A stretch of DNA of 44,228 bases from Pseudomonadota bacterium (GTDB lineage: Bacteria > Desulfobacterota > Syntrophia > Syntrophales > UBA5619): NCBI GenBank assembly GCA_018819165.1, contig JAHJQP010000020.1, forward strand, positions 1-44,228, written 5' to 3'. Under the pieces are notes generated by a model that worked only from the letters and a program-made list of their open reading frames with translations, was not told the DNA's origin and made no database searches. Positions 1 through 16,459 of this stretch are shown here, piece by piece; position 1 is the stretch's first letter; every line of letters starts with the position of its first letter. The position numbers and the translations under genes are program-made.

Positions 1-140
1 CAGCGGCTGACGTACACGCGAGCTTGCTCGCGGGGACGGCTGCCCGCTGCAGCCGCTTGATGGACTGGCGCGAAGCGCCAGGACAAAAGCGGATGGCAAT
101 CAGCAGCGCCGATGGCTCGGCGCGAAGCGTCCGAGCCATC
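1..140. repeat. Cluster of GC-rich stem-loops, truncated by the window edge
   Basis: Read directly from the sequence. AGCGGCTG (2-9) pairs with CAGCCGCT (50-57), with an inner CGCGAGC/GCTCGCG stem at 17-32. CCGCTT (53-58) pairs with AAGCGG (87-92) and encloses CTGGCGC-GAA-GCGCCAG (65-81). GATGGCTCGGCGC-GAA-GCG-T-CCGAGCCATC spans 111-140 with T130 bulged. The core GCGAAGC occurs twice (70-76, 122-128) and CGGATGGCAAT occurs twice (90-100, 153-163). Confidence 0.5.
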
Positions 141-143
141 GCC

Positions 144-199
144 CCGCATAACCGGATGGCAATGGAGCGTAGCGGAATTGCCAGTCCGAGTTAATGCGG
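144..199 (-). other. attC-like recombination-site hairpin (candidate attC-2); the plus strand would be the bottom strand
   Basis: A 20-bp interrupted stem: 144-152 pairs with 190-199, 153-156 with 185-188, and 157-163 with 177-183. The loop is 13 nt (164-176). AAC (150-152) pairs with GTT (190-192). The three unpaired bases (G184, A189, A194) all lie on the same arm. The site sits 25 nt downstream of the stop of the 224-895 ORF. Confidence 0.45.
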
Positions 200-223
200 T
201 TGTTGTGTGCCATTTTGGTACTA

Positions 224-895
224 CTACTGCTTCTCTGCGATTAGTTTTACCGTCTTTTTGGCAAAAGACTCGAAAATATGGGCTATGATAGGGATTTTCT
301 TTTGGGAATCATTTTTTGTGCCTTGCGTGCCAAGCCCCATGTCGATTCCCATATTTTTCTCGACGTCAAGTGCCATAAACCCAAAATAGTGTGAGAATCC
401 TACTTCGGTACTTCCAAAAGAAACATTAATAAAGGCAGAAAGACGGTTTACGAAATCAAGTTTTTGTGAATTTCTTTTTAGATCTGTGGTTGCGTTGCTA
501 TGAAGTTCCAAGTTATCAGCAACCCACATGGCGGATACACCACACAAAGGGGCCTTAGTCTCCTTGGTTCGCAGTTTTGTATATTCGTAATAATCATCAA
601 ATAACTCGGCATCTATTTGCCACTGCTTTGATAGAGCTCTTTTAACCTCATTCCGCACCTGGGGGTCAGAGAGCACGCCTTCAGCATGAACAGCGACACC
701 TGTCATAGCAATTGTCATAAGACAATCCCAAACTTCCACAAGATTCGAATCAATAATGGCTCCATAGTCGGGAAAACAGTTGACGATTGGCATGAGAGAA
801 GCCTTAGCAAGGGTATTTGTTTCCCATACAATATAATCAAATTCTCCTTCTTTATTCTTCTGCGATGATCTTCTGTTAAATGGCCAAAATTTCAT
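224..895 (-). CDS. Hypothetical protein (223 aa from ATG 895; the ORF extends to a TTG at 925)
   Basis: Long ORF in the AT-rich island. AGGAG lies 9 nt upstream of ATG 895 (MKFWPFNRR...). There is a double TAG stop (224-226, 221-223). I recognise no family motif. Confidence 0.6.
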   Translation of the reverse strand: MKFWPFNRRSSQKNKEGEFDYIVWETNTLAKASLMPIVNCFPDYGAIIDSNLVEVWDCLMTIAMTGVAVHAEGVLSDPQVRNEVKRALSKQWQIDAELFDDYYEYTKLRTKETKAPLCGVSAMWVADNLELHSNATTDLKRNSQKLDFVNRLSAFINVSFGSTEVGFSHYFGFMALDVEKNMGIDMGLGTQGTKNDSQKKIPIIAHIFESFAKKTVKLIAEKQ

Positions 896-979
896 TACTT
901 CTTTCTCCTGTTCCAGATTTATCAAAACACAATCACCTGCCGTCCAGTCATAAAAGAGAGCGGAAATGTATTTACCTCC

Positions 980-1714
980 CTATGTGACTTCAAATCTGTG
1001 AATGGGAACAGACATTTTGACCAAGGTTGTCACTCGAACGGTTTTGCCATTCAGCTTTACTTTTGCAATTCGCTTTGAATGATCGACATCGAGAATCTGA
1101 CCCAACTGGCTTGAATACAAGCAATCCTCACCAGGAATGACTTGATTCCATCTTGTAGGGCGCCAAAATGGTTTGAGGGGACGCAGTTTCGCTTTATCGC
1201 GTTCCCAAAATTCGTGATGTTTATCGCCAAGGCGACCATTCTTTTGCACATTTACTGAATCGATTATCCAGAAAGGACCAGTGTTCCAACCATAAACAGA
1301 ACGAACTCCCTTTACTGACCAAACCTGCCCCGGCATTCCTTTGATCTCAAAAACATCACCTCCCTTTAGCGGACAAGCAGGCGTGATGTTTTTTTCCAAA
1401 TAGTCATTTATTTTAGTCCATAGAGAAGCCGCTTTTTTCTCTGCCTCAGAATGAGCATAAAGAAGCTGATAAAGTTCAAGGTGGCGCTCATTCCTTAATA
1501 CTTTATCACTTTGTTGGATAGAAAAATGATTCCATGCAGCAATCGCATGCCTATCTTCCTTTTCTGAAAAATACTTATCGCATTTCTTGCAGCCAACAAT
1601 AGTGTTTTCATGCACGCTATGGTCTATTTCTGGAATCCACCGTATCACAAGGGATTCACGGGAGCCGCATAGAGGGCATGTTAAAACGTCAAATTCTTTG
1701 GCAGATTGTTCCAT
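980..1714 (-). CDS. Lar-like zinc-ribbon (restriction-alleviation family-like) N-terminal domain fused to an unknown beta-rich C-terminal domain of about 170 aa
   Basis: The N-terminus reads LTCPLCGS...VGCKKCD...HAIAAWNH. This matches the CPxCG...CxxC...AIxAWN pattern of Lar-family proteins. The start is uncertain: ATG 1714 or TTG 1729, and neither has a clear RBS. Confidence 0.6.
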   Translation of the reverse strand: MEQSAKEFDVLTCPLCGSRESLVIRWIPEIDHSVHENTIVGCKKCDKYFSEKEDRHAIAAWNHFSIQQSDKVLRNERHLELYQLLYAHSEAEKKAASLWTKINDYLEKNITPACPLKGGDVFEIKGMPGQVWSVKGVRSVYGWNTGPFWIIDSVNVQKNGRLGDKHHEFWERDKAKLRPLKPFWRPTRWNQVIPGEDCLYSSQLGQILDVDHSKRIAKVKLNGKTVRVTTLVKMSVPIHRFEVT

Positions 1715-1723
1715 ACCTTCAGC

Positions 1724-1786
1724 ACACAACGATTGAGGTCAGCGGCGGGCAGTTTTTCGCCCGTCCGCTGTAGTGACTGGTTAGGC
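1724..1786 (-). other. attC-like recombination site (candidate attC-1, 63 bp)
   Basis: Plus strand: ACACAAC (1724-1730), a 9-nt spacer, then an 11-bp stem (1740-1750 pairs with 1759-1770) with extrahelical T1764 and an 8-nt loop, another 9-nt spacer, then GTTAGGC (1780-1786). Read on the minus strand this is GCCTAAC...GTTGTGT, the order R''...R'. Confidence 0.5.
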
Positions 1787-1902
1787 GGTCATCTGTTCCC
1801 TTTATTTTTTTTCATCCTTCGTTGTGCCGGCGCCGGGCATGGGGTTTATTGTAACATTGTTCATTTATTCAATTAGAGGGCAGAAATCATCTACACAAAT
1901 AT

Positions 1903-2733
1903 TTACTTAATTATAGCATTTCTATTAATTATCTTGTAACCGTCACAATCGCGGACATCAACAAATGCTTCTGCCTTCACGATGCAAGACACGACGCCGC
2001 TTTCAATCACAACCCAAACATTCCCGTAGTTATATTTTAGATCGCTTCCATGAGATACTTTTGATCGGGGCTCGCCGGCGAATTTAATTACCTCCTGAGG
2101 CGTCATGCCCCGTTCAAGATTTTGTATGGCGGTTTTTGCTTTTGATTTTATGTCAAATTTCACCTTTTCTAATTCATCCATCTTTCCAAAAGCTTCCACT
2201 CGTTCTTTCCGAAGCGTAACTACTTCATCTATATTCTTTGTAGTAAGTTGTTGTTGCAATTTTTTCAGATTATCTTCCAGCCCTTGAAGCTGTCGTTGCT
2301 GATCAATGACCTTTTTCTCTAGCTCCCTATCAGACTTAATTTGCTTTACTCTCTCCCGAAAGGAACCGATATCAACATCAGCCTTAACCGTCATGAAGAT
2401 GATTTGATTTTCACCGACAAATTTAATTTCTTCGGAGGCAATCTCAACTTTAACGATCGCTCCGGCGAAAGTCTTTATCTCATCACGGGTCAAGTTGAAA
2501 TTCTTTATCTCTGTGGAACTTTCAATATATGTTCCTGCTTTTTCGATAGCCAATCGCTTAGCTTCAAGGAAGCAAATCCTTTTTGCATCATTTTTGGTAT
2601 CGTTATCACCCATCGTGTATTTGTAGCTGGCGAAAACAGATTCTGAGGCGGAGTAAGCTGATGAAGAAAAGGATAAGAAAATTATGATAAACAATAGTGA
2701 AATGAAGGGAGTTTTATTGTCCTCTGTTTTCAT
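1903..2733 (-). CDS. Secreted or periplasmic coiled-coil protein (N-terminal LPP20-like region, C-terminal BamE/SmpA-like region), function unknown
   Basis: Signal peptide MKTEDNKTPFISLLFIIIFLSFSSSAYSA. The central segment is rich in heptad-like charged repeats (KQIKSDRELEKKVIDQQRQLQGLEDNLKKLQQQL). The C-terminus contains GMTPQEVIKFAGEP. AAGGAG lies upstream of ATG 2733. Confidence 0.7.
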   Translation of the reverse strand: MKTEDNKTPFISLLFIIIFLSFSSSAYSASESVFASYKYTMGDNDTKNDAKRICFLEAKRLAIEKAGTYIESSTEIKNFNLTRDEIKTFAGAIVKVEIASEEIKFVGENQIIFMTVKADVDIGSFRERVKQIKSDRELEKKVIDQQRQLQGLEDNLKKLQQQLTTKNIDEVVTLRKERVEAFGKMDELEKVKFDIKSKAKTAIQNLERGMTPQEVIKFAGEPRSKVSHGSDLKYNYGNVWVVIESGVVSCIVKAEAFVDVRDCDGYKIINRNAIIK

Positions 2734-2802
2734 GAGCTATCTCCTTAAAAATTTCCGGAAGAACCTTCAAAATGATACTATTAGGATTTCTGATTAGCGC
2801 CG

Positions 2803-3315
2803 TTAGGCGGTCCAGCTATTAGCCTCAATGTTAACAATGAAACCTGATTTAAGTAGTTTGTTGCAAAATGGTGTAACATGTTCTGAACCACAGATGAACA
2901 ACAAAGGCCATTTGTTCAGGGTTTTAATCCTTGCTAGCCAAACAGCTTCACGCTTTCGATACTCTTTCTCGATCCGTTCCTGGATTTCCTCTCTCGACCA
3001 GTTATTTCGATATTGTCCATAATACTCTATTGTGCCTTCATTCATTATGCCAAGCTCCGATTGTTCATCTATAGTAGGGTCCGAATATTGGTGTGCTATA
3101 TTGAAGCTTTGAGCTACTTGAAATGGAATGGACTCATCCTGACTATTTTCATTTAAAACCTCTTTATTCATCTCTTCTGCAATTGCATGAATGCTATGCT
3201 TTTTTACTAAAACGGATAGATAATTTCGAAACTTTTCAATCTCATCATTTGATCGGCATTTATCAGACCACTGAAACTCATGATTTGTACCGACTATGAC
3301 GATAATTTTATCCAT
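2803..3315 (-). CDS. Small Tiki/TraB/GumN (EreA-like) superfamily-like protein (tentative)
   Basis: A 170-aa ORF with IVGTNHE near the N-terminus, AEE in the middle and ICGSEHV near the C-terminus. This resembles the GTxH...E...GxxH signature of that superfamily. The TAA stop (2803-2805) lies inside GCCTAAC. Confidence 0.55.
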   Translation of the reverse strand: MDKIIVIVGTNHEFQWSDKCRSNDEIEKFRNYLSVLVKKHSIHAIAEEMNKEVLNENSQDESIPFQVAQSFNIAHQYSDPTIDEQSELGIMNEGTIEYYGQYRNNWSREEIQERIEKEYRKREAVWLARIKTLNKWPLLFICGSEHVTPFCNKLLKSGFIVNIEANSWTA

Positions 3316-3342
3316 TGCATCGAGCCTAACAATGTTTATATT

Positions 3343-3480
3343 GATCCGTATAAAAACCCAAAAGCCGCAATATTTGCCGTATAAGACGCCGACGGAAATT
3401 ATAATTTATCAGTCATAAACATCATTGTATCTAATGGTTACGCATGAGCGTTGTTTTTGTCATGGTGTTTTATACGGATC
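3343..3480. repeat. 13-bp perfect inverted repeat (GATCCGTATAAAA at 3343-3355 / TTTTATACGGATC at 3468-3480) enclosing reiterated CCGTATAA motifs
   Basis: CCGTATAA occurs at 3346-3353 and 3377-3384 (direct) and at 3470-3477 (inverted). A variant GGTATAAAA lies at 3481-3489. The region is immediately upstream (minus-strand sense) of the first cassette boundary GTTAGGC. Confidence 0.5.
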
Positions 3481-3510
3481 GGTATAAAATCCTCTGCGAC
3501 CTCCCAATCA

Positions 3511-3547
3511 GTAATAAAAACCCCCGTTCTTTTCTTGGGAACGGGGT
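3511..3547 (-). terminator. Rho-independent terminator with no gene directly upstream (orphan)
   Basis: The minus strand reads CCCCGTTC-9 nt loop-GAACGGGG followed by GTTTTTATTAC. The stem is 3522-3529/3539-3546. Confidence 0.6.
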
Positions 3548-3704
3548 CATGATAGCTAGTCCATATTTCCCTCCAGCACGGTTATACGTGATGGAACATA
3601 TTCAACTGCTTTTCATATTTTCAGTTTCATTATCACGATTATCTTTTGAAATCTACAATAAAAAGAATAATGTCGACCTGTTTCTTTTAGGAAGTTGTCT
3701 TTAG

Positions 3705-3744
3705 CAAAAACACCACCCGATGCGGACCCGTATGCCGGATGGTG
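3705..3744 (-). terminator. Rho-independent terminator downstream of the RhuM-family gene
   Basis: On the minus strand, CACCATCCG...CGGGTGGTG (3744-3736 pairs with 3719-3711, 8 of 9 bp) is followed by TTTTTGC. Confidence 0.5.
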
Positions 3745-3792
3745 AGGGGGCTGGGGGAGCGCCGGCATACCGATGATGCGTCTGCTTCACCA

Positions 3793-4386
3793 TCATACGG
3801 AGTTCTTGTTCACCCGGAGGGTTGCCAGCGCAGCGGCGACTTCTTTCCCCTTTGCCTCGATGATGTCCATCAGCTCTTCCGGCGTTCGGGTGTCCACATT
3901 CGGCTTCTTGTTCGGATTGACGGCCTTCAGGTCATAGACGGCGTCTTCGATTTCCTTGGCCTTGCCGGCCAGATCCCTCGATTCGCGCGTCAGGTGTTCG
4001 CGCAGAACCCCGGTAGCCCAGATGCGGAACTGCGTACCGCGCTTGGAGTTTACCCGGTAGCCGACGGAGATAATCATGTCGAGGTTGTAAAATTTCACCC
4101 TGCGCCGGATACTGCGGCTGCCTTCCCATTGAACTACCGAGAAATCCTCGGTAGTTACCGCTTTTCCCAATTCGCTTTCCTTGTAGATGTTTCTAATATG
4201 GAGGCCGATGGTATCCGAGTCTTTATCAAACAATTCGGCCATCTGTTTCTGGGAAAGCCACAACGTCTCCCGCACCAGCCGGACATCCAGCTTTATGGTG
4301 CCGTCCGGATCACTATAAAGGACAATGGCATCCCCACCATAATCACTTGGCGGTTCCCGAAGGATGTTGGGTTGCTTTCTCATCAT
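3793..4386 (-). CDS. rhuM: RhuM-family virulence/Fic-associated protein
   Basis: Contains ...IVLYSDPDGTIKLDVRLVRETLWLSQKQMAELF...LHIRNIY...KFYNLDMIISVGYRVNSKRGTQFRIWAT, which is typical of RhuM. GGAG lies upstream of ATG 4386. The start overlaps the stop of the hsdS fragment (ATGA). Confidence 0.85.
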   Translation of the reverse strand: MMRKQPNILREPPSDYGGDAIVLYSDPDGTIKLDVRLVRETLWLSQKQMAELFDKDSDTIGLHIRNIYKESELGKAVTTEDFSVVQWEGSRSIRRRVKFYNLDMIISVGYRVNSKRGTQFRIWATGVLREHLTRESRDLAGKAKEIEDAVYDLKAVNPNKKPNVDTRTPEELMDIIEAKGKEVAAALATLRVNKNSV

Positions 4387-4610
4387 AATTCTCCATTGAA
4401 CGCCCGGCGCAGCAGGGTTGCGGGCAAGGCGTTGATCGTGGCCAATTCTTCTTCCAACGCCGCGCGGGCTTTCTCCACCGCCGGATGGAGGGCCTTGAAC
4501 CACTCACCGATCCGCTCGACACCTGGCTCGATCCGGAGGAACTCGCCGGTCAGGCCGCCCGCCAACAGGCAGCCGATGGCCGCCAGGGGCTCTTCCCCGG
4601 ACAGGGCCAT
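4383..4610 (-). pseudogene. hsdS: Type I restriction-modification specificity subunit (HsdS) C-terminal fragment
   Basis: A 75-codon ORF ending ...ALEEELATINALPATLLRRAFNGEL, the conserved C-terminal helix of HsdS. No target-recognition domains are present and there is no room for them before the neighbouring gene end at 4659. Confidence 0.65.
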
Positions 4611-4658
4611 CTGCAGACCGATCAGGATTACCGCCAGGCCGAGGCCCTGTATGCGGAA

Positions 4659-6278
4659 TCAACTCTCCGCTGATTTCCTCTCCAGGATCGTAATGGCAAA
4701 ATCCGGGCAGATATAGAGGCACCGCAGGCAGCCGACGCATTTATCCGTATTCACGGCAACGGCCGGTTTGTAGCCGCCGGGGTTGAAATCCTCGGATTGT
4801 TTGAAGATGTCGAGGCTGCACACCTCCCGGCAGTAGCCGCAGTCCTTGCAGATGAGATCGTTGACCGCCACTTCGAATTCGCGGAGATCGCAGGAGAGGC
4901 AGCGGAATGCTTCCGCCGCGGCTGCTTTTCTCTCATAGGCCAGCTCTATGGGATCGAAGGTGACGCGCCGCCTCTTCAGGGCAATTTTTCGGACGTCCGG
5001 TCGCGTTGTCCCTCGCGGCGCGGTCTCCGGCAGCGCCGGATTTTCATCTTCCGACAGAGCCTCCGGGATGACCCCCGTGCCGCCTAAAAACCGGTCGATG
5101 GATGCGCAAGCCAGTCTCCCCTGGGCGATGGCCTCGATGATGGTCGAGGGACCGGTCACGGCATCTCCCCCGGCAAAGACTCCCTTCTTCAGAGTGGCCA
5201 GATTGCCCTTATCCACATGCACCGTCCCGTTTCTTAGCCCTTCCAGATTTACGGAAGCGGCATCCGCGGACTGACCGATCGCCATGATCAGGGTGTCAAA
5301 GCTCAAAGCATACTCGCTGCCGGCGACGGGAACAGGCGCCGGTCTGCCGGTTGCATCGGCATCCCCCAGTTTCATACGGATGCAGGTCGCCTGATCTTCT
5401 CCGATCTTCACGGGCGCCGTCAGATACTCGATTCGTACGCCTTCCTCAACGGCCTCGACGATCTCCTCGCCGCTGGCCGGCATTTCCGAGCGGGTCCTGC
5501 GATAGACCTGGACCACCTCCGCACCAAGACGGATCGATGCCCGGGCCGCATCGACGGCCGTATTGCCGCCTCCCACCACGATCACCTTCCTGCCGATGGC
5601 CGGTGTTTTTCCTTCATTGACCTGTCTTAGAAAAGAGATGCCGTCGATGACTTTCGGCGAATCCTCGCCCGGGATTCCCATCCTGGCCGGCTTCCAGGCG
5701 CCCGTCGCCGCCAGAACCGCATCAAAGCCCTTTTCCCGCAAGGCTTCCGCCGAGGAGACCGGCGTGCCCTCAACCAGATCGACCCCGCCCTCCCGGATCA
5801 ACGCGATCTCCCGGTCCACGATCTCCTCGGGCAGGCGATACTCGGGAATGCCGTAACGCAGCATGCCGCCGGGCAGGGAGAGCGCTTCATAAACGGTGAC
5901 ACTGTGCCCCAGGACGTTCAGATAGTGGGCGGCCGTCAAGCCGCAGGGACCGGAACCGATGACGGCAACCTTCTTTCCCGTAGGCGGCCGTTTGAAGATC
6001 ACCGCCGGTTTCCGCCCGCCCTTCTCCGCGGCAACCCTTTTGAGCATCCGAATGGCGACGGCTTCATCAAACTGGATCCTCGCGCATTTTGCCTCGCAGG
6101 GATGGACGCAAGCGCAGCCGCAGACAAAGGGAAACGGTATCCGCTCCCGGATGACGGCCAGTGCCTTTTCAAAGCGTCCGTCCCTGATATGCCTGATATA
6201 CCGGGGGACATCAATGCCCGCCGGACAAGCCTCCTGGCATGGGGCTGTCGACTTCTTCCTGCACTGAATGGCTCCCAC
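4659..6278 (-). CDS. GltD-like NAD(P)H-dependent FAD oxidoreductase fused to a C-terminal 2x[4Fe-4S] ferredoxin domain
   Basis: N-terminal Cys cluster CRKKSTAPCQEACP. Dinucleotide folds VAVIGSGPCGLTAA and VIVVGGGNTAVDAA. C-terminal CKDCGYCREVC and CVGCLRCLYICP. GTG start with a GGAAAGGAAAG RBS. Confidence 0.85.
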   Translation of the reverse strand: MGAIQCRKKSTAPCQEACPAGIDVPRYIRHIRDGRFEKALAVIRERIPFPFVCGCACVHPCEAKCARIQFDEAVAIRMLKRVAAEKGGRKPAVIFKRPPTGKKVAVIGSGPCGLTAAHYLNVLGHSVTVYEALSLPGGMLRYGIPEYRLPEEIVDREIALIREGGVDLVEGTPVSSAEALREKGFDAVLAATGAWKPARMGIPGEDSPKVIDGISFLRQVNEGKTPAIGRKVIVVGGGNTAVDAARASIRLGAEVVQVYRRTRSEMPASGEEIVEAVEEGVRIEYLTAPVKIGEDQATCIRMKLGDADATGRPAPVPVAGSEYALSFDTLIMAIGQSADAASVNLEGLRNGTVHVDKGNLATLKKGVFAGGDAVTGPSTIIEAIAQGRLACASIDRFLGGTGVIPEALSEDENPALPETAPRGTTRPDVRKIALKRRRVTFDPIELAYERKAAAAEAFRCLSCDLREFEVAVNDLICKDCGYCREVCSLDIFKQSEDFNPGGYKPAVAVNTDKCVGCLRCLYICPDFAITILERKSAES

Positions 6279-6422
6279 GTTTGCTTTCCTTTCCGAACGA
6301 TGCCTTCAATTCCGCTATATGAAGTTCATCCCGGCAGGATCTGCAGGGATGAATTTCTTCGGAGGTTTCTTTTTCCTGCACCCTGACACGGTGCATGAAT
6401 CCGGCCCGGATTCATCGCTGCT

Positions 6423-6962
6423 CTATGGGCGCATGATGAGTTCCACGCCCCTCTGCAGCGCCTTCAGATTCAGCTCCCCGGCGTTTCCCTGGAAACGCTT
6501 CCGGATCACGCTGGCCAGGCTTTCCGTCTTCACCATCCGGCCCGCGGCCGACAGGGCCCCCAGGGCAAGGATGTTGACGGCGGCGGTGTTCCCGAGGTCA
6601 CTGGCCATTTTCGTAAAGGGATAACCGGTCAGGTTTGCCCCCGCTCTGGCCTTCGCCAGCGTAGTATCATAAAAGACGGGCGCCCCTTTTTCCGCCCAGG
6701 CCGCGTATTTTTCCAGGGCCTCCTCGGTCAGCGCCAGGATGATATCCGGTTTCTGGACCTGCTGGTAGATGATCTCCTCCTGATCGATGATCACCTCCGC
6801 CAGGGATAGACCGCCACGGCTGGCAATGCCGTAGGACTGAGTCTGGACAACAACTTTACCTTCCAACATCGCCGCTTCGCCAAGCATGATGCCGGCAAGC
6901 ACCAGTCCCTGCCCGCCGGATCCGGCCAGGATGACCTCATATCTCTCTTTCTTTTCATTCAT
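6423..6962 (-). CDS. 2-oxoacid:ferredoxin oxidoreductase, gamma subunit
   Basis: YEVILAGSGGQGLVLAG...QSYGIASRGG pattern. ATG 6962 lies 14 nt after the beta-subunit stop. Confidence 0.85.
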   Translation of the reverse strand: MNEKKERYEVILAGSGGQGLVLAGIMLGEAAMLEGKVVVQTQSYGIASRGGLSLAEVIIDQEEIIYQQVQKPDIILALTEEALEKYAAWAEKGAPVFYDTTLAKARAGANLTGYPFTKMASDLGNTAAVNILALGALSAAGRMVKTESLASVIRKRFQGNAGELNLKALQRGVELIMRP

Positions 6963-6975
6963 CTCGTTTCGGACC

Positions 6976-7809
6976 TTACTCGGCCTTTTGGGCCATCGCC
7001 CTGACCCGGATCTCTTCATATCTCGTATTGAAATCCGGGGCATCCCGGTCCACCAGTTTCCCGATGGCGAAATGGTTTTTTTGCTCCTCGGCGCTCAATT
7101 TTCTGTACCGCTTCACGGGCAGGCCCCTTTCTTTGAACCAGTCGAGCATCTCCCGGGTCTCTTTCATTTCGTTGTTCTTGCCGAAGTGGGTGGGGCAGGG
7201 ACTGAAAACTTCTACAAGAGAAAATCCTTTTTTGTTCAGGGCTTCCTTGATGAGTTCCTTGAGTTCCCATCCGTGGTAGGGAGTCTCCCTGGCCACGTAA
7301 TTGGCGCCGGCGACTTCAGCCAGGGCGCAGATATCGAAACCGCGCTCCGGGTTTCCCCAGGCTGTGGTGCTGGTAAAACTTCCGCCAGGCGTGGTGCCCG
7401 AGACCTGCCCGCCCGTCATGCCGTAATTGAAATTGTTGATGACGATGGCCGTCAGATCGATATTCCTTCTCGCGGCATGAATGAAGTGATTCCCGCCGAT
7501 GGTGACGCTGTCCCCGTCTCCCATCAGGACCACCACATGCAGCTTCGGATTGAATGCCTTGATCCCTGTCGCAAACGCCAAAGCGCGGCCGTGTGTTGTG
7601 TGCAGGGCATTCGTCAACAGGTAATCGTCGGACTTTCCCGTGCAGCCGATCCCCGTTACGACGACGGTATCGGCTTTCCTGTAATCGAGCTCCTCGAATG
7701 CCCGCAGCATGGCCCCCAGCATGACGCCGATCCCGCAACCAGAGCACCACATGTGCGGCAGCACCCCGTCTTTCAGATATTTTATGCCTGTCGCGTGTGA
7801 CAATCCCAA
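6976..7809 (-). CDS. 2-oxoacid:ferredoxin oxidoreductase, beta (TPP-binding) subunit
   Basis: Contains WCSGCGIG and the TPP motif GDGDSVTIGGNHFIHAARRNIDL...NNFNYGMTGGQ. Confidence 0.9.
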   Translation of the reverse strand: MGLSHATGIKYLKDGVLPHMWCSGCGIGVMLGAMLRAFEELDYRKADTVVVTGIGCTGKSDDYLLTNALHTTHGRALAFATGIKAFNPKLHVVVLMGDGDSVTIGGNHFIHAARRNIDLTAIVINNFNYGMTGGQVSGTTPGGSFTSTTAWGNPERGFDICALAEVAGANYVARETPYHGWELKELIKEALNKKGFSLVEVFSPCPTHFGKNNEMKETREMLDWFKERGLPVKRYRKLSAEEQKNHFAIGKLVDRDAPDFNTRYEEIRVRAMAQKAE

Positions 7810-7821
7810 CCCCCTCTGTTT

Positions 7822-8649
7822 TTATCTCACCAACCCGAGCATCTCCCTTGCCTCGGCAGGGGTGGCCGGCTCCCGACCGCACTCGCGGGCAATGCGGGCC
7901 AGACGGGCCACCAATTGAGCGTTGCTTTGGGCCAATTCGCCCCGCTTGTAGTATAGATTATCCTCCAGACCGGTGCGGGCGTGCCCGCCCATGGCGATGG
8001 CCAACATGTTCATAGGCAACTGGCGCCACCCCACCGCGCACACCGACCACAGCGACCCTGCGGGTATGCTATCTATTAAGTAGAGCAGGGAACGTGCCGT
8101 GGCGGGGGCCCCTCCCTTAACCCCCAGGACGAACTGCCACCACGGGGGCGGTTTGATCAGACCATTCTGTATAAGTGTCATGGCATTGCCAATCATTCCG
8201 CTATCAAACACTTCAATTTCCGGTTTGACGTTCGCTGCCAGCATGCGCCCGGCCAGTTCCTCCAGAAAGTCCGGCGGATTCAGAAAGACGCGTTCATTGA
8301 AGTTCATGGAGCCTGCATCCAGCGACCCCAATTCCGGCCCGGCAGCCAAGCTGTTGAAGCGCTCGCCCTCATCCACACGGCCGGCCCCGCCGCTTGTAGT
8401 GAAATTGATGAGAATATCGCATCCCTGGGCGCGGATCAGTTGCTTGACCCGCTGGAACCGCGACAGATCGCAGGTCATCTTTCCCGCCTCGTCCCGCACA
8501 TGGACGTGGACGACGGCTGCCCCTTCGCGCCAACTCTCCACCGCCGCCTGGGCAATCTCCTCGGGCGTGACGGGCAGTCCGGGGTTTTGCAGCTTAGACG
8601 GCCGACTGCCGGTCGTGGCTACCGATAGGATAATTTTGTCATTGTTCAT
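7822..8649 (-). CDS. BKACE family enzyme (3-keto-5-aminohexanoate cleavage-like, DUF849)
   Basis: Resembles Kce-type proteins along its full length, for example TPEEIAQAA...VVHVHVRD and ...SNAQLVARLARIARECGREPATPAEAREMLGL. Confidence 0.85.
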   Translation of the reverse strand: MNNDKIILSVATTGSRPSKLQNPGLPVTPEEIAQAAVESWREGAAVVHVHVRDEAGKMTCDLSRFQRVKQLIRAQGCDILINFTTSGGAGRVDEGERFNSLAAGPELGSLDAGSMNFNERVFLNPPDFLEELAGRMLAANVKPEIEVFDSGMIGNAMTLIQNGLIKPPPWWQFVLGVKGGAPATARSLLYLIDSIPAGSLWSVCAVGWRQLPMNMLAIAMGGHARTGLEDNLYYKRGELAQSNAQLVARLARIARECGREPATPAEAREMLGLVR

Positions 8650-8919
8650 GTGGTATTCCTTAATCTTGATAAGAACTTGTTTTGGGTGGTGTGAGTATAT
8701 GGAAATGGTTTTTGTGCGTCAATATAAATAAACCGCCGCCATTTCCCCATGCCTGACATGAGAGGAACGGAACCACAGATTGCGCAGATGATTGAGACAC
8801 ACCGATCTTGTGTTGAAGGGAAGCGATAAATCTGATAGACGTCCATATATGAACCAGAACGTTTCTTCAAGAGAACACTGCCGTTTGCGGGGAGGCTGCC
8901 CCGAAGGGGAAGCGACGGG

Positions 8920-9708
8920 ATGAGAGCGATCTTTATCTCCGACGCTCACCTGAAAGGCGCTGAAGATGGCGTCTGTAAAAAGCTCCTGCATTTTTTCGAC
9001 CATCTTCGGGATGGGGTCGTAACGGCCGGCAGGGGGGGAGGCGGAGCGACCGGGAACGGCGGACCGGTGAATCAACTCGTCATTGCGGGAGATTTATTCG
9101 ATTTCTGGTTTGCGAGAGGTGATGTGATCTATCCCGGTTTTCGACCGGTGGTGGAAAGGCTCGCACTTTTGCGGCGTTCGGGAATCAGGATCAGCTTGTG
9201 TGAAGGCAACCACGATTTCTTCCTCACAGACTATTTTTCGCAGAAACTGGGTATGGAGGTCTATCCGGAGTGGGCCGAGATCGATCTTGACGGCCTGCGG
9301 ATCCTCGTTTCGCACGGTGATACCGTGGACAGGGAAAATCGCCGCTACCTGGCGCTGCGGCGATTCCTGCATAGCCCCTTTTCCTTCCGGCTGCAGCGTG
9401 TGCTTCCGCTGGCGTTCCTCTGGCGGATCGCCCGGATCAGTTCGGAGATGAGCAAGGGGATATCCGGGGGCGCGCAGGATCGTCTAACAGAGGTCATGTA
9501 CCGTTTTTCCCTGGACAAATTTGAGGAAGGCTATGATGCCGTAATCCTGGGCCACTGTCACAAGCCGCTCATTCGTGAGGTGCAGCGCGGCGGCAGGCTC
9601 AGGACCTTCGCCACCCTGGGCGACTTGATTACCCATGATTCCTATCTGCTGTACGAAAACGGCCGCTTTACACTGAATCGCTTTTCGCCCGAGGGGCAGC
9701 ATGGATGA
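8920..9708 (+). CDS. lpxH: UDP-2,3-diacylglucosamine hydrolase (LpxH-type metallophosphoesterase)
   Basis: Motifs FISDAHL, AGDLFDFW and GNHDF. A Gly-rich insertion follows the first motif. Confidence 0.75.
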   Translation: MRAIFISDAHLKGAEDGVCKKLLHFFDHLRDGVVTAGRGGGGATGNGGPVNQLVIAGDLFDFWFARGDVIYPGFRPVVERLALLRRSGIRISLCEGNHDFFLTDYFSQKLGMEVYPEWAEIDLDGLRILVSHGDTVDRENRRYLALRRFLHSPFSFRLQRVLPLAFLWRIARISSEMSKGISGGAQDRLTEVMYRFSLDKFEEGYDAVILGHCHKPLIREVQRGGRLRTFATLGDLITHDSYLLYENGRFTLNRFSPEGQHG

Positions 9709-10174
9709 GAGATTCATCTGCGATCGCAATCTGGGAAAACTGGCAAAGTGGCTTAGGATCCTTGGCTATGACACCCTTTTTTACCGGGGGAATGCGGATC
9801 GGGATTTTCTCCGGAAAGCAGACCGGGAGGGGCGGATCGCCCTGACCAGGAAGAGGGATCTCGAACGCCGGCAACATGCTGGACGCCTCGTCGTGATCAA
9901 GGCCGATCGCGCAGACGCGCAGATCGGTGAAATCCTGGAGGTTCTGGCTCTGTCACCGGATCCGTTGAGAAGGATGAGCCGATGTCTGCGCTGCAACTCG
10001 ACGCTGGAGGAGGTTGCGAAGGAAGCTGTGGAAGGCATGGTTCCCGTCTATGTTTATGAAAACTGCATGCAATTTCACAGATGTTCCCTGTGCGGGGGAA
10101 TCTTCTGGCCGGGGACTCACCCCCGGCATGTCGAGGAGTATCTCAGGCGGCGCATTCCCTCTCGTCGCCCTTGA
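9701..10174 (+). CDS. Mut7-C RNase domain (DUF82) protein with a C-terminal zinc ribbon
   Basis: FICDRNLGKLAKWLRILGYDT N-terminus. CLRCN...CSLCG pair. Its start overlaps the lpxH end by 8 nt. Confidence 0.75.
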   Translation: MDERFICDRNLGKLAKWLRILGYDTLFYRGNADRDFLRKADREGRIALTRKRDLERRQHAGRLVVIKADRADAQIGEILEVLALSPDPLRRMSRCLRCNSTLEEVAKEAVEGMVPVYVYENCMQFHRCSLCGGIFWPGTHPRHVEEYLRRRIPSRRP

Positions 10175-10634
10175 TCTTTTCGATGGCGTGCGGGAGGGCG
10201 GGCAGGAGGACTTCAAGATTTTCCCGGGCCCCTTTCGGACTTCCGGGGAGGTTGATGATCAGGGTCCGGCCCCGGGTGCCGACCAGGGCGCGCGAGAGCA
10301 TCGCGTGAGGGGTAATGGCCGCGCTATGACTCCGCATGGCCTCCCCCATCCCAGGGATCTCCCGTTCAATGACCTCCCGGGTGGCCTCCGGTGTCACGTC
10401 CCTGTGGCTGACGCCGGTGCCGCCTGTCGTCAGGATCAGGTCCGCTTTCTCGCCCTCGCTCCACTCAAGAAGAACCCGGCGGATCATCTCCTTTTCGTCG
10501 GGCACAATCCGCCGAGCGACAATTTCCATCCCCAGCCCTTCGATCATTCCGGCGATTTCCGGACCGCTCTGATCCTCGCGTTCGCCGCGGGCGCCGCGGT
10601 CGCTGACGGTGATGATGACGGCCCTAAAACCCAC
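10143..10634 (-). CDS. mogA: Molybdenum cofactor biosynthesis protein MogA/MoaB family
   Basis: Contains VIITVSDRGARGEREDQSGP and LILTTGGTGVSHRDVTPEAT. GTG start in the context TAACGTG, directly after the EF-G stop. Confidence 0.8.
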   Translation of the reverse strand: MGFRAVIITVSDRGARGEREDQSGPEIAGMIEGLGMEIVARRIVPDEKEMIRRVLLEWSEGEKADLILTTGGTGVSHRDVTPEATREVIEREIPGMGEAMRSHSAAITPHAMLSRALVGTRGRTLIINLPGSPKGARENLEVLLPALPHAIEKIKGDERECAA

Positions 10635-10635
10635 G

Positions 10636-12717
10636 TTAATCCTCCGCTTCCCTCTTTGATTCGGCGATGATCTTCTCAGAGATGTAGGAGGGAACCTCCT
10701 CGTAATGGGAGTGTTCGCAGGTAAACGTTCCGCGTCCGCTCGTCATCGAACGGAGATCGGGGGCGTATTTCAGAATCTCGGCGAGGGGGACCTGTCCCTT
10801 GATGATCTGGTGGTGACCGATGGAATCCATCCCCAGGACCTTCCCGCGGCGGCTGTTCAGATCGCCGATGACGTCGCCCATGTACTCGTCGGGGATTTCG
10901 ATCATGATATTGACGATAGGTTCGATAAGGGTGGGCTGACATTCGAGGACCCCCTTTTTGAAACCGAGGGAGCCCGCGATTTTGAAGGCCATTTCGGACG
11001 AATCGACGGTATGATAGGAGCCGTCCACGAGGGAGACCCTGAGATCGACAACCGGATAACCCGCCAAAACGCCCTCCGCCATGGCCTCCACGATGCCCTT
11101 CTCCACGGCCGGCCGGTACTGCTGGGGAATAACGCCGCCTACGATCCTGTCAGCGAACTCAAAGCCGACTCCTCTCGGGAGCGGCTCGATCTCCAGCCAA
11201 GTATCACCGAACTGACCGCGGCCACCGGACTGTTTCTTGTAACGCCCCTGAACGGTGGTCTTTCCCTTGATCGTCTCCTTGTAGGGGACCTTCGGGGTCT
11301 TCAGATTCACCTCGAGACCGAATTTCCGTTTCATCTTTTCGATGGTTACCTCGATATGAACCTGTCCCAGGCCGGAGAGGATCATCTCCCTGGTCTGGTC
11401 ATCCCGGTGGAATGACAGGGTGGGATCCTCATCGGTCAGGCGGTGGATGGAGGAGACGATCTTGTCTTCATCGCCGCGTGTTTTCAGTTCCACGGCAAAG
11501 GAGATGATCGCCGGGGGCGGTTCGACCCTGGCAAAGACAATAGGAGTTTTTTCCGTGCAGAGGGTATCGCCGGTTGCCGTTTCCTTCAGTTTGGCGATGG
11601 CCGCGATGTCGCCGGGGATGAGGGTTTCAACCGGTTTCTGGGTTTTCCCCTCCAGGAAGAAGAGATTCCCGATCCGCTCGGTGGACTTCCGGGAGGCGTT
11701 GAAGACGCTGGAGTCGGAGCTGAGAGTGCCGGAATAGACACGGAAGAGGGTGAGACGCCCCGCATAGGGATCGGCTATGGTCTTGAAAACGAGGGCCGAA
11801 AACGGCGCCGACTCTTCCGGCATCCGGATTTCATCCTCTTCGCTTCCCGGCTTCTTTCCGGCTTTACCGCCTGGGTCGACTGGTGACGGGAAGTACTGCA
11901 CAATCGTGTCCAACAGGGATGATATCCCGATGTGTTTCGTAGCCGAACCGCAGGCGACGGGGGTCAGCAAGCCGGCCAACACCCCTTTCCGCAGACCCGC
12001 CTGCAGATCTTCGGCGCTCAGTTCGCCCCCTTCCAGGTATTTATTCATCAGCCCATCGTCCGTTTCGGCGATATCTTCCACCAGGATGTCCCGGCATTTC
12101 TTGACCTCCTCAGCCATATCGGCCGGAATATCGACCGATTTGGCCGCTTTCTTCTGGTTGTCGAAAACGAGGGCCTTCATGGCGATCAGATCCACCACCC
12201 CGGCAAAGGATTCCTCGGCGCCGATGGGAAGAGAGACGATCGTGATCTTCTCCCTCAGCCGCTTCCGGATGCTCTCCACCGCCTTGCCGAAATCGGCCCG
12301 TTCCCGATCCATTCGGCTGACGAACAGGAGGCGGGGAAGCTTGAATTCGTCGGCATATTCCCAGACTTGTTCAGTCTGAAATTCGACACCCCCGACGGCG
12401 TCGACGAGGACCACCGCTCCGTCCACTACCCGCAGAGAGCTTTTCGTGTCAAAGGTAAAATTGGAATCCCCGGGTGTGTCGATGAAGTTGATCCTGTGTT
12501 TTTCCCAGTCGATATTGTTTGTGGTGGCGCTGATGGAGATATGTCTCTTCTGCTCCTCCGGTTCATAGTCCATGCAGGAGCTTCCGTCATCAACCCGTCC
12601 GGGCCTGTCCGTTTTCCCGGCGACGTAGAGAAAGGATTCGCACAGAGAGGTCTTGCCGGTTCCTCCGTGTCCGATGATTGCGAGGTTTCTTATCGATTTA
12701 GATTCATATTTTGACAT
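10636..12717 (-). CDS. Elongation factor G paralog (EF-G-like GTPase)
   Basis: A 693-aa protein with full EF-G domain order. P-loop GHGGTGKTS, DTPG, and G4 reading SRMD instead of NKMD. GGAG RBS. Confidence 0.9.
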   Translation of the reverse strand: MSKYESKSIRNLAIIGHGGTGKTSLCESFLYVAGKTDRPGRVDDGSSCMDYEPEEQKRHISISATTNNIDWEKHRINFIDTPGDSNFTFDTKSSLRVVDGAVVLVDAVGGVEFQTEQVWEYADEFKLPRLLFVSRMDRERADFGKAVESIRKRLREKITIVSLPIGAEESFAGVVDLIAMKALVFDNQKKAAKSVDIPADMAEEVKKCRDILVEDIAETDDGLMNKYLEGGELSAEDLQAGLRKGVLAGLLTPVACGSATKHIGISSLLDTIVQYFPSPVDPGGKAGKKPGSEEDEIRMPEESAPFSALVFKTIADPYAGRLTLFRVYSGTLSSDSSVFNASRKSTERIGNLFFLEGKTQKPVETLIPGDIAAIAKLKETATGDTLCTEKTPIVFARVEPPPAIISFAVELKTRGDEDKIVSSIHRLTDEDPTLSFHRDDQTREMILSGLGQVHIEVTIEKMKRKFGLEVNLKTPKVPYKETIKGKTTVQGRYKKQSGGRGQFGDTWLEIEPLPRGVGFEFADRIVGGVIPQQYRPAVEKGIVEAMAEGVLAGYPVVDLRVSLVDGSYHTVDSSEMAFKIAGSLGFKKGVLECQPTLIEPIVNIMIEIPDEYMGDVIGDLNSRRGKVLGMDSIGHHQIIKGQVPLAEILKYAPDLRSMTSGRGTFTCEHSHYEEVPSYISEKIIAESKREAED

Positions 12718-12822
12718 GAAATCTCCTTTCTGAGCGCCCTGGACATGTGATTCTATGTGCCTGAGCTCTTTAGCTTAAGGGTCGCTTCAAAGTCAAGACA
12801 ATTTTGGGTGATAAAACGATGC

Positions 12823-12850
12823 TTGACTTTTGGGATGATTATGTTATTTT
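12823..12850 (+). promoter_or_regulatory. Candidate sigma70-type promoter for the M23 peptidase gene
   Basis: TTGACT (12823-12828), a 16-nt spacer, then TATTTT (12845-12850). Identified by pattern only. Confidence 0.3.
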
Positions 12851-12904
12851 GCGGCAAAATTTATGCCTTGGCAACCGGTGAAAAGATCTGGGATGGGGGT
12901 TTCA

Positions 12905-13810
12905 ATGCCGAAGAATTTCTATACCCTTCTGATTCTTCCGAGGAAACACAGTTCCGCAAAGAAAGTCAGCCTTTCCAGCACATTGGTAAAAGGCGTATGC
13001 ATATTTGTAATGGGCATCATACTTTTCATGATGTATTTCTCCTATGATTATATCCACATCCGCCGGGAGAAGGCCGAATTGAAGCGCCTGAAGCTGCAGA
13101 CCGTCGAACAGAGGGAGCAGATCGATGGACTGGTGGCCAAGGTTGACCTTTTTTCATCAAAAATGGAGGAGCTCAAGCAGTTCGACAAGAAGATCAGAAT
13201 CTTGGCCAATCTCGTCACAGGCCGCGGCAAGGAGCAGCTTCTCGGGGTCGGCGGTCCGGCAAGCGAGGAGAACAGAATACGCGCCAGGATTGCCGCTGAT
13301 GAAAGGGCGATGATCGCGGATGCCCACCGGCAGGTGTATAGCCTGATGAACGAGGCCGTTTCGCGCCAGAAGAGCTTTGCCTCTCTTCTGGCCCTTCTCA
13401 AGGAGAAGAAATCCATCATGGCGGCAACCCCTTCCCTGTGGCCCGTCAAGGGCTGGGTGACGTCCGAATTCGGTCGCCGGATATCCCCTTTCAGCGGCGA
13501 AGGGGAATTTCATAAGGGTCTGGATATCGCGACGGGATATGGACGGGCGGTCCAGGCGCCCGCCGATGGCGTGGTCGCGGAGGTGACTTACGATAATGAC
13601 GTGGGGCGGATGATTTTGATCGACCACGGTCACGGCCTTTCCACCATGTACGCCCATCTCTCCAAGGCGGCCGTGCGTCCCGGCGCCCCCGTCAGGAAAG
13701 GGGACCGCATCGGCTATGTGGGGAATACCGGCCGCAGCACGGGGGCCCATCTTCACTATACCGTGATGCTCAACGGCGTCGCTGTCAATCCGAGGAAGTA
13801 TTTGAATTAA
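12905..13810 (+). CDS. M23 family metallopeptidase
   Basis: Contains HKGLDIA and GNTGRSTGAHLHY. N-terminal membrane anchor and coiled coil. ATG 12905 is preferred (GGGGG lies upstream); the ORF is open from 12863. Confidence 0.85.
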   Translation: MPKNFYTLLILPRKHSSAKKVSLSSTLVKGVCIFVMGIILFMMYFSYDYIHIRREKAELKRLKLQTVEQREQIDGLVAKVDLFSSKMEELKQFDKKIRILANLVTGRGKEQLLGVGGPASEENRIRARIAADERAMIADAHRQVYSLMNEAVSRQKSFASLLALLKEKKSIMAATPSLWPVKGWVTSEFGRRISPFSGEGEFHKGLDIATGYGRAVQAPADGVVAEVTYDNDVGRMILIDHGHGLSTMYAHLSKAAVRPGAPVRKGDRIGYVGNTGRSTGAHLHYTVMLNGVAVNPRKYLN

Positions 13811-13858
13811 TCCCTTGTCGCTGGAGAGGGAGCATCAGCCATCTGAAGAACGAATCCG

Positions 13859-13882
13859 CCGGTCATGGTACCGGTTTTTTTT
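13859..13882 (+). terminator. Weak Rho-independent terminator after the M23 gene
   Basis: CCGGT-6 nt-ACCGG followed by T8 (13875-13882). Confidence 0.35.
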
Positions 13883-13893
13883 GAAGGAATTTT

Positions 13894-16413: not shown

Positions 16414-16459
16414 GTGCGGTAAACGCAAAATCGCTCGGCTGGCAGGCTTAAGGAGGCAT

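Follow-up and report, generated by a model that had tools for sequence, protein, structure and literature searches.

A putative two-gene integron cassette with a Lar-like zinc-ribbon protein and an orphan protein in a Syntrophales bacterium

The locus, its genes and its boundaries

The window, by which we mean the whole 44,228-nt stretch of contig JAHJQP010000020.1 that was analysed (GenBank assembly GCA_018819165.1, a bacterium of the order Syntrophales), carries two co-oriented genes on the minus strand near its low-coordinate end. The first of these open reading frames (ORFs), A, encodes a protein that opens with a zinc ribbon like that of the Lar (RalR) restriction-alleviation proteins, and the second, B, encodes an orphan. 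Judging from sequence comparison and predicted folding, the minus-strand segment that runs from 1729 to 140 is in our reading one integron gene cassette, with A and B as its cargo and an attC site behind them (Table 1).

Both ORFs lie on the strand and at the coordinates that a first-pass annotation of this DNA had given them, and their homologues bear them out as genes. Those of A (24 proteins) and those of B (55–62) all come from environmental assemblies. Every homologue of A starts with ME(Q/R), and the corresponding ATG lies 16 nt inside the cassette, with a ribosome-binding site (GAAGG) 3–4 nt 5' of it; a TTG at 1729, an alternative start that is itself the first base of the cassette, is used by no homologue. 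The ATG start of B is common to 32 aligned homologues. Pairwise ratios of nonsynonymous to synonymous substitution (dN/dS) against seven or eight orthologues are 0.22–0.46 for A and 0.19–0.30 for B. With homologues and a low dN/dS, A and B are real genes under purifying selection. The gap from A to the conserved ATG of B is 84 nt; the 54 nt given at first pass is correct for an upstream TTG at 925 and not for that ATG. The spacer is conserved among the loci in which A precedes B. It holds no attC hairpin, its DNA fold being no better than those of shuffled sequences (dG −2.7, z +1.3), and a combined promoter and terminator scan, itself not above shuffles, found no terminator-like site in 896–979. 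Two minus-strand terminator-like sites do occur in the cassette, both within coding sequence, with stems at 1549 to 1533 (in A) and 622 to 607 (in B).

The limits of the unit are defined by comparison with other genomes. When the window was compared by blastn with loci fetched through homologues (designated L001, L002 and so on), a single segment was shared, running from 1730–1734 to 146–65, and nothing else in 44 kb. This segment was found in L004, L005, L013, L014, L016 and L017, and a homology start at 1730–1734 was also reported for L011, where A stands alone. The cassette start reads G/TTGTGTGC (a slash within a site marks the break), with the 5' boundary at the crossover G1730/T1729, and G140 is the 3' end, homology to other loci around the attC breaking off at 146–132. 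The nine bases with which the unit opens, GTTGTGTGC (1730 to 1722), are the exact complement of GCACACAAC at the R'' box, as would be expected if the start and R'' adjoin each other in the circular form of the cassette.

The attC site of the A-B cassette folds well as single-stranded DNA (dG −16.6 kcal/mol, z −3.8), with none of 200 shuffles as good. It has three bulges of one base each, which all lie on the 5' (R''-L'') arm of the gene-sense strand, and the same one-arm pattern recurs in L014, in the unrelated attC that stands upstream of A there. Where extrahelical bases are limited to one arm of attC, they set the choice of strand in recombination. The site is kept after B in seven other loci (L004, L014, L016, L017, L018, L019 and L035), and in an alignment of the window with six loci 95.7% of cells are paired, as against 25–41% when the alignment is slid. 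Compensatory changes affect two pairs, GGCAAT with ATTGCC being replaced by GGCAAA with TTTGCC and by GGTAAA with TTTACC. The unit ends in GCACACAAC-AACC-GCATTAAC-TCGGAC-TGGCAAT-loop-ATTGCCA-TCCG-GTTATGC-GGGGC-G, after which the sequences diverge; this end is shared by six of the seven contexts where A and B occur together, L001 being the exception, and by L018 and L019, where B stands alone, with divergence 8–9 nt past GTTATGC. We had considered GCATTAAC and GTTATGC as the R boxes and rejected them, since the seven-locus comparison extends homology 8–9 nt further and makes them L boxes; by the same comparison ACACAAC and GTTGTGT are the R boxes of the A-B unit. A strict attC scanner (complementarity at 5 of 7 R-box positions) found no site in the window, where the bulged T breaks the register. 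As a terminator, the hairpin was not called by the terminator scan, and no T-run stands 3' of it.

Table 1. Features of the A-B cassette and of the cassette that precedes it, in window coordinates (minus-strand features are read from the higher to the lower number).
Feature	Position	Strand	Sequence or description
A-B cassette	1729 to 140	minus	read as one integron gene cassette
ORF A	980..1714 (1714 to 980)	minus	ATG start, 244 aa
A-B spacer	896..979	minus	84 nt, holds B ribosome-binding site GGAGAAAGAAG
ORF B	224..895 (895 to 224)	minus	ATG start, 223 aa, MKFWPF...
A-B attC	138..208	minus	placed by box anatomy, fold and homology breakpoints
A-B attC R''	208 to 202	minus	ACACAAC, then spacer AACC
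A-B attC L''	197 to 190	minus	GCATTAAC, then stem and loop
A-B attC L'	152 to 146	minus	GTTATGC, then spacer GGGGC
A-B attC R'	140 to 138	minus	G/AT
Cassette 1	1730..3329	minus	~1600 nt, start G/TTAGGC (G3330; 3330 to 3324)
Cassette 1 ORF, 170 aa	2803–3315	minus	uncharacterised
Cassette 1 ORF, 276 aa	1903–2733	minus	signal-peptide-like N-terminus and coiled coil; uncharacterised
Cassette 1 attC	1724..1786	minus	precedes A-B cassette
Cassette 1 attC R''	1786 to 1780	minus	GCCTAAC
Cassette 1 attC L''	1770 to 1759	minus	CAGCGGACGGGC
Cassette 1 attC L'	1750 to 1740	minus	GCCCGCCGCTG
Cassette 1 attC R'	1730 to 1724	minus	G/TTGTGT, opens the A-B unit

Contexts of the unit and the pairing of A with B

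Seven unrelated genomic contexts hold the ~1.6-kb A-B unit, its flanks differing in each and its ends being the same in all but L001, namely the window, L001/L002, L004/5/6/13, L014, L016, L017 and L035/36, at 78% amino acid identity or more. The first-pass suggestion that the pair is mobilised as one unit is supported, the vehicle being a cassette that has its own attC and is found in seven places. In five of the seven contexts (window, L014, L016, L017 and L035) the unit lies in an array and starts C/GTTGTGTGC, with a different hairpin before each. In L004 it has the same start (GTTGTGTG) and keeps its own attC, and the DNA upstream is AT-rich without a clear hairpin (L004/L005/L013, ~7900–8000); this may be an insertion outside an attC site. 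In L001 (9480–9560) the pair has neither this start sequence nor the attC, is followed by a different stem-loop, and adjoins MTHFR and Hdr-like genes.

The related loci are runs of short co-oriented genes, many of them unknown, and include PIN/Phd, ParE and VapBC pairs, TIR and GIY-YIG proteins, methyltransferases, and XhoI and NgoFVII-type nucleases. L014, a 1.34-Mb contig of a Syntrophales metagenome-assembled genome (CAXXWJ010000002.1), also holds three group II introns (reverse transcriptase and maturase, Rfam D1–D4 models) on the strand opposite to the cassettes, at ~9150–11040, 2100–3905 and 1–68. One of these introns splits an attC exactly within its R'' box (GCCTAA/C), and group IIC-attC introns are known to insert in attC sites in this way (PMC3001079).

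This evidence also bears on another origin for the unit, as the remnant of a prophage or of a non-integron island, whose hairpins would be terminators or repetitive extragenic palindromic (REP)-like elements and whose gene A would be a phage-derived Lar homologue. Such an origin would suit the facts that Lar-family proteins are typically phage or prophage genes (RalR; PHROG 599), that no integrase is present, and that the unit sits in a low-GC island and is followed by GC-rich REP-like hairpins. However, tblastn searches of 50,697 phage records and 72,556 plasmids were empty for both A and B, and family scans found no phage structural or replication genes near the unit. The breakpoints fall at G/TT, the site has the R and L boxes of an attC with bulges on its 5' arm, and its hairpin is without a T-run or a terminator call. 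Moreover, the unit stands behind different attC-like sites in different arrays, and in L014 a group IIC-type intron lies inside an attC R'' box. We therefore regard a prophage or island remnant as very improbable and keep to the integron cassette.

Whether A and B belong together is a separate question, and it was approached by tblastn of both proteins against all fetched loci, combined with inspection of neighbouring genes. The first-pass annotation had treated the two as a pair, and as a general property of the families this does not stand, as they are adjacent in one shallow clade only. B stands alone in L018 and L019 (79–80% amino acid identity to the window) and, at 46–61%, in L009, L020, L021, L022-25, L031 and L032-34, while A stands alone in L011 (74%), L015 (50%), L007/8 (38%) and L030 (27%). 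This makes twelve solitary contexts, eight of B and four of A. Flanks were adequate in eleven contexts, and outside the shallow clade A and B are adjacent in none of them; L026 is uninformative, as B runs off the end of the contig there. At least four of the solitary genes are separate single-gene cassettes, each with attC of its own: A lies between attC-like sites of its own in L015 and L007, and B, with its own leader, lies behind another attC in L019 and L031. The 216-aa protein before B in L009 was considered as a possible A, and the genes after A in L007 and L030 as a possible B; all are unrelated, these neighbours being a membrane protein, a leucine-rich repeat (LRR) protein and a GIY-YIG-like protein.

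At each A-B locus the synonymous divergence (dS) of A from the window is similar to that of B, which fits one fusion followed by co-inheritance, and the solitary cassettes of A and of B argue against an obligate two-gene system. Most likely, then, the A-B unit arose by one fusion of two independent cassettes, after which the fused cassette spread. The A-B spacer aligns only weakly to the leaders of B-only loci, and the fusion junction is not placeable in this way. On this account the co-occurrence of the genes no longer serves as evidence for cooperation, and cooperation may still exist within the A-B clade.

The same observations can be set against the proposal that A and B form a dedicated two-component anti-restriction, anti-defence or defence system housed in one cassette. 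The pair is intact, with its conserved 84-nt spacer, in seven contexts, with purifying selection on both genes and matching dS, and the N-terminus of A is Lar-like. Two-gene integron cassettes are typically functional pairs such as toxin-antitoxin (TA) or restriction-modification (R-M) genes, as with XhoI and its methylase in L035 (PMC10661359), and phage-defence systems are known on integron cassettes (bioRxiv 10.1101/2024.07.02.601719). The A-B unit resembles these cassettes in having co-oriented genes with one attC; an XbaI R-M two-gene cassette is a further example (cited in PMC10661359). It is unlike them in that A and B each exist as a separate cassette as well, and in that no functional link joins them. 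With A and B apart in all eleven informative contexts beyond one shallow clade, B alone even at 79–80% identity and A alone at 74%, no PADLOC model matching either protein, and an enzymatic or effector domain recognisable in neither, we hold a dedicated two-component system to be quite unlikely.

A special case of partnership would be a TA module serving to stabilise the array of cassettes. Among two-gene cassettes TA pairs are the most frequent, and they abound beside these loci (PIN/Phd, ParE, VapBC); RalR/Lar of E. coli is annotated as an endodeoxyribonuclease toxin. Each gene, however, is found alone as its own cassette, in twelve solitary contexts, which a toxin could not be; TA pairs do not typically have proteins of 244 and 223 aa or a gap of 84 nt; no TA family was matched; and the antitoxin of RalR is an RNA and not a protein. 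We find a TA module hardly credible, and fusion of two independent cassettes remains the reading adopted below.

The array and its surroundings

The window contains two complete two-gene cassettes (3329 to 1730 and 1729 to 140), of which A-B is the second in the array. The preceding one, cassette 1, encodes two proteins without a significant family in Pfam, PHROGs, NCBIfam or PADLOC, and folding found no internal attC or hairpin between its ORFs. The central stem of its attC (1770 to 1740) has a DNA fold with dG −15.5 kcal/mol and z −2.7, and its R'' box GCCTAAC complements exactly the bases with which the same cassette opens (TTAGGC, 3329 to 3324). An 11-mer, GACCGCCTAAC, is present both at the stop codon of the first cassette 1 ORF (~2812) and at the attC R'' box (~1790), hinting that cassette 1 may be another cassette fusion. 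More cassettes may lie to the left of window position 1, which is only 140 nt beyond the A-B attC. Directly 3' of that attC, at 1 to 137 on the minus strand, stand three consecutive GC-rich hairpins (dG −49.4 kcal/mol, z −4.7), and in L014, L017 and L019 the same attC has variant hairpins behind it whose loops are likewise of the CGCTCC type; these may be ORF-less attC-like sites or REP-like elements.

The array is hosted by the chromosome of an anaerobe of ~60% GC, with housekeeping genes alongside, and the region 200–3700 has a GC content of 36–45% compared with ~60% in the rest of the window. No integron integrase was found on the expected side, in the 13 kb from 3330 to 16428, the part at 16.4–44 kb not having been scanned against family libraries, and none was seen in the fetched loci. 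What 3330–16428 holds is AT-rich non-coding DNA, an intron remnant, debris of R-M and RhuM genes, and housekeeping genes. A complete integron, with intI and attI adjacent to the array, is thus not present in the part examined, and we provisionally class the array with the clusters of attC sites that lack an integrase (CALIN), a category described by Cury et al. 2016 (PMC4889954). Like CALIN cassettes, the A-B unit is compact and promoterless-looking, has a G/TT boundary and a 3' attC with R''/L''/L'/R' boxes and extrahelical bases on the 5' arm, is low in GC relative to its host, and stands behind varied upstream attC sites; the related arrays likewise hold TA, R-M and unknown cassettes and a group IIC-type intron in an attC. 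Unlike usual cassettes, the A-B unit has two ORFs, its cargo families are undescribed, and no integrase is in view, whereas most cassettes hold one gene (PMC3001079).

Upstream of cassette 1, positions 3330–3711 are AT-rich non-coding DNA without a recognisable R'' box. This stretch contains a 26-nt inverted repeat (3335–3360 and 3463–3488), whose arms are 85% complementary and separated by 102 nt, and a stem with a T-run near 3545–3515 of the minus strand. It could be an attI-like site, a decayed cassette or a secondary insertion site. Beyond it, at ~3712–3775, lies a group II intron remnant, ~65 nt from the intron's 3' end; 48 nt of it are 87.5% identical to L014 9156–9203, next to an intron reverse transcriptase gene. 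This remnant forms the high-coordinate edge of the low-GC island and abuts the stop codon of an HsdM-like fragment. Rfam models applied to the window returned two tRNAs only, and an E-value search of 3300–4900, intron remnant included, was empty.

The first-pass annotation had noted a decayed type I R-M locus 2–3 kb from the pair, and such debris is real, consisting of RhuM and HsdM fragments. The ORF at 3793–4503 (minus) is a chimera of an N-terminal RhuM fragment (profile positions 2–58 of 252) and an HsdM-like stretch of 48 aa that has 67% identity with the C-terminal end of HsdM from a type I R-M system. A 75-aa ORF at 4383–4610 ends in ...LPATLLRRAFNGEL; its look of an HsdS tail was not confirmed, there being no plasmid match and a doubtful match to DUF554. 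As a meaningful neighbour the locus did not hold up: because no type I R-M remnant was seen beside the cassette in the other six contexts (flanks of 0.6–8 kb), its proximity here looks incidental.

Cargo proteins, possible function and mobilisation

Protein A has the motif CPxCG...CxxC...AIAAWN described at first pass, with C13, C16, C42, C45, W61 and N62 invariant in 21 of 21 family members down to 21% identity; G146, W189 and C198 are likewise invariant in these 21 sequences. Residues 10–63 align with positions 3–56 of the 58-position Pfam profile PF14354 at 18.9 bits, under the cut-off of 28.6 bits, and NCBIfam TIGR03655 gives 27.3 bits against a cut-off of 39.6 bits; by curated scores, A thus falls short of both. 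RalR itself, used as a control, scores 53.5 bits on PF14354, and 12 of 19 relatives of A match that profile at E≤0.01 (best E 2.6e-5). An hhalign comparison of the A-family profile with E. coli K-12 RalR/Lar (64 aa) gave a probability of 78% and E 1.7e-5 over 49 columns that take in CPxCG, CxxC and A..WN. Of the traits of the Lar family, A has the C4 zinc-ribbon motif and the conserved A..WN helix and not the format of a small stand-alone protein of 60–70 aa. The Lar-like N-terminal module proposed at first pass is thus upheld at a distance: A carries a Lar-type zinc ribbon as a distant relative, not as a member by curated thresholds.

Pfam, PHROGs, NCBIfam and PADLOC offered no family for the remaining C-terminal ~170 aa of A. 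When 1.84 billion representative proteins were searched with the profile of the A family, 30 clusters only came back, and in this search the C-terminal region was joined to no other domain. Because nearly all 30 clusters are of 237–258 aa and match end to end, the 'fusion' is the fixed architecture of a rare family and not a recent event, so that the first-pass description is right in that the two parts are joined and not in any implication that they were joined lately. An AlphaFold2 model built on a 19-sequence alignment (pLDDT 87.2) has strands and a helix at residues 22–68 as the ribbon module (the Lar-like module being aa ~10–68), a long helix at 79–109, and two predicted SH3/Tudor-like beta-barrels at 121–180 and 197–237. 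Foldseek searches of the PDB with this model gave weak, fold-level matches (E 1e-3 to 1e-1, target TM ~0.3, identity 10–16%), all to tandem SH3-like, Tudor or KOW pairs, and the family profile matched no PDB chain sequence. The predicted barrels (residues 121–237) resemble those of the KIN17 C-terminal domain (2ckk, 9coj), the SHH1 SAWADEE domain (4iur), the UHRF1 tandem Tudor and EF-P, a likeness of fold in which homology is not established. In relation to RalR of the E. coli Rac prophage, A shares the CPxCG...CxxC ribbon followed by the A..WN helix, and differs in its length (244 aa vs 64), in the invariant extra helix and two beta-barrels after the ribbon, in being cassette-borne and not phage-borne, and in its score (18.9 vs 53.5 bits); moreover, A is known from sequence alone.

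Protein B was called an orphan at first pass and remains one. It has no family in Pfam, PHROGs, NCBIfam or PADLOC, and a profile search added little, reaching 62 proteins with no Pfam domain over the matched region in any. Its AlphaFold2 model is confident (pLDDT 90.4, pTM 0.87) and all-alpha, with ten helices and a basic N-terminus (residues 1–19) that is predicted to be disordered. Foldseek found no structural neighbour of the model in the PDB (best E 0.22) or BFVD (best E 0.55), and the family profile matched no PDB sequence. In L022, L023 and L025 the distant homologues of B (46% identity) pass into long stretches of GAA/GAG repeats, which give them poly-Glu tails.

Lar of the Rac prophage, the only functional precedent for the ribbon of A, relieves restriction by type IA systems and stimulates their modification activity, as does lambda Ral, which is not related to it in sequence. 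SH3/Tudor-like barrels elsewhere bind nucleic acids or peptide tails. Since the predicted architecture of A is a ribbon, a helix and two barrels without a catalytic domain, A might bind nucleic acid, or a DNA-processing complex of the host, stoichiometrically, and B may be a soluble all-alpha protein that acts on its own. Modulation of R-M in the manner of Lar would be the most likely specific role for A, by analogy, and we offer it tentatively as a possibility on the unlikely side. The mechanism of Ral has been reviewed (PMC12707154), in a text in which the word Lar does not occur. Defence functions and rare uncharacterised proteins are over-represented on integron cassettes (PMC10661359; bioRxiv 10.1101/2024.07.02.601719), and for A or B a part in defence or in counter-defence is plausible but unsupported. 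Of the defence-system searches suggested at first pass, that with PADLOC came out negative, with no match in PADLOC-DB 2.0 at E≤1 for A, B or both cassette 1 proteins, and neither Pfam nor Foldseek against the PDB revealed a recognisable enzymatic or effector domain in A or B. It is unlikely, though conceivable, that A stands for a new class of cassette-borne modulator of R-M or defence, a Lar-type ribbon tethered to a tandem SH3/Tudor-like reader that integrons keep in reserve, and B for a new fold with a defence or counter-defence activity of its own, and that within the A-B clade the two may cooperate.

Taken as a whole, we consider it probable that the unit is an integron cassette, that it is mobilised in trans, and that A and B are independent cargo. 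By analogy with known integrons, an integrase supplied in trans would excise the unit as a circle and reinsert it, with recombination proceeding through the folded bottom strands of attC sites, and any promoter that reads into the array would transcribe A and B together. The joining of the two independent cassette genes in one cassette would have been a single event.

Several observations weigh on the other side. We placed the attC sites from their anatomy, their folds and the points at which homology breaks off, and not with a covariance model, and a relaxed, crude hairpin scanner recovered the A-B attC alone in the window. Folding is less convincing for the attC of cassette 1 (z −2.7), where R'' and R' are unpaired in the minimum free energy structure. 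In the B-only cassettes L018, L019 and L031 the start is not complementary to R'', and the perfect complementarity of the A-B cassette may be partly luck. With no integrase seen, we infer recombination activity from the sites only. A working two-gene system, too, would be expected to leave a pair that is kept in seven contexts with purifying selection on both genes. As the Lar link is sub-threshold, the functional inference is weak for A, and for B there is none; to our knowledge the Lar family has only one characterised member.

Identification as an integron cassette would give this odd gene pair a known mechanism of mobilisation and clear boundaries. If their linkage is a recent cassette fusion, this corrects the inference that both proteins must work together. 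The element itself is of an ordinary kind, and what is new is its cargo, where the remaining interest lies: A represents a rare family of fixed architecture that would extend the Lar-type ribbon, and B is an orphan with a confident model. Integron cassettes being rich in phage-defence genes, both are candidates for functional screens. If it were true that A modulates restriction, this would be the first Lar-like activity described outside phages.

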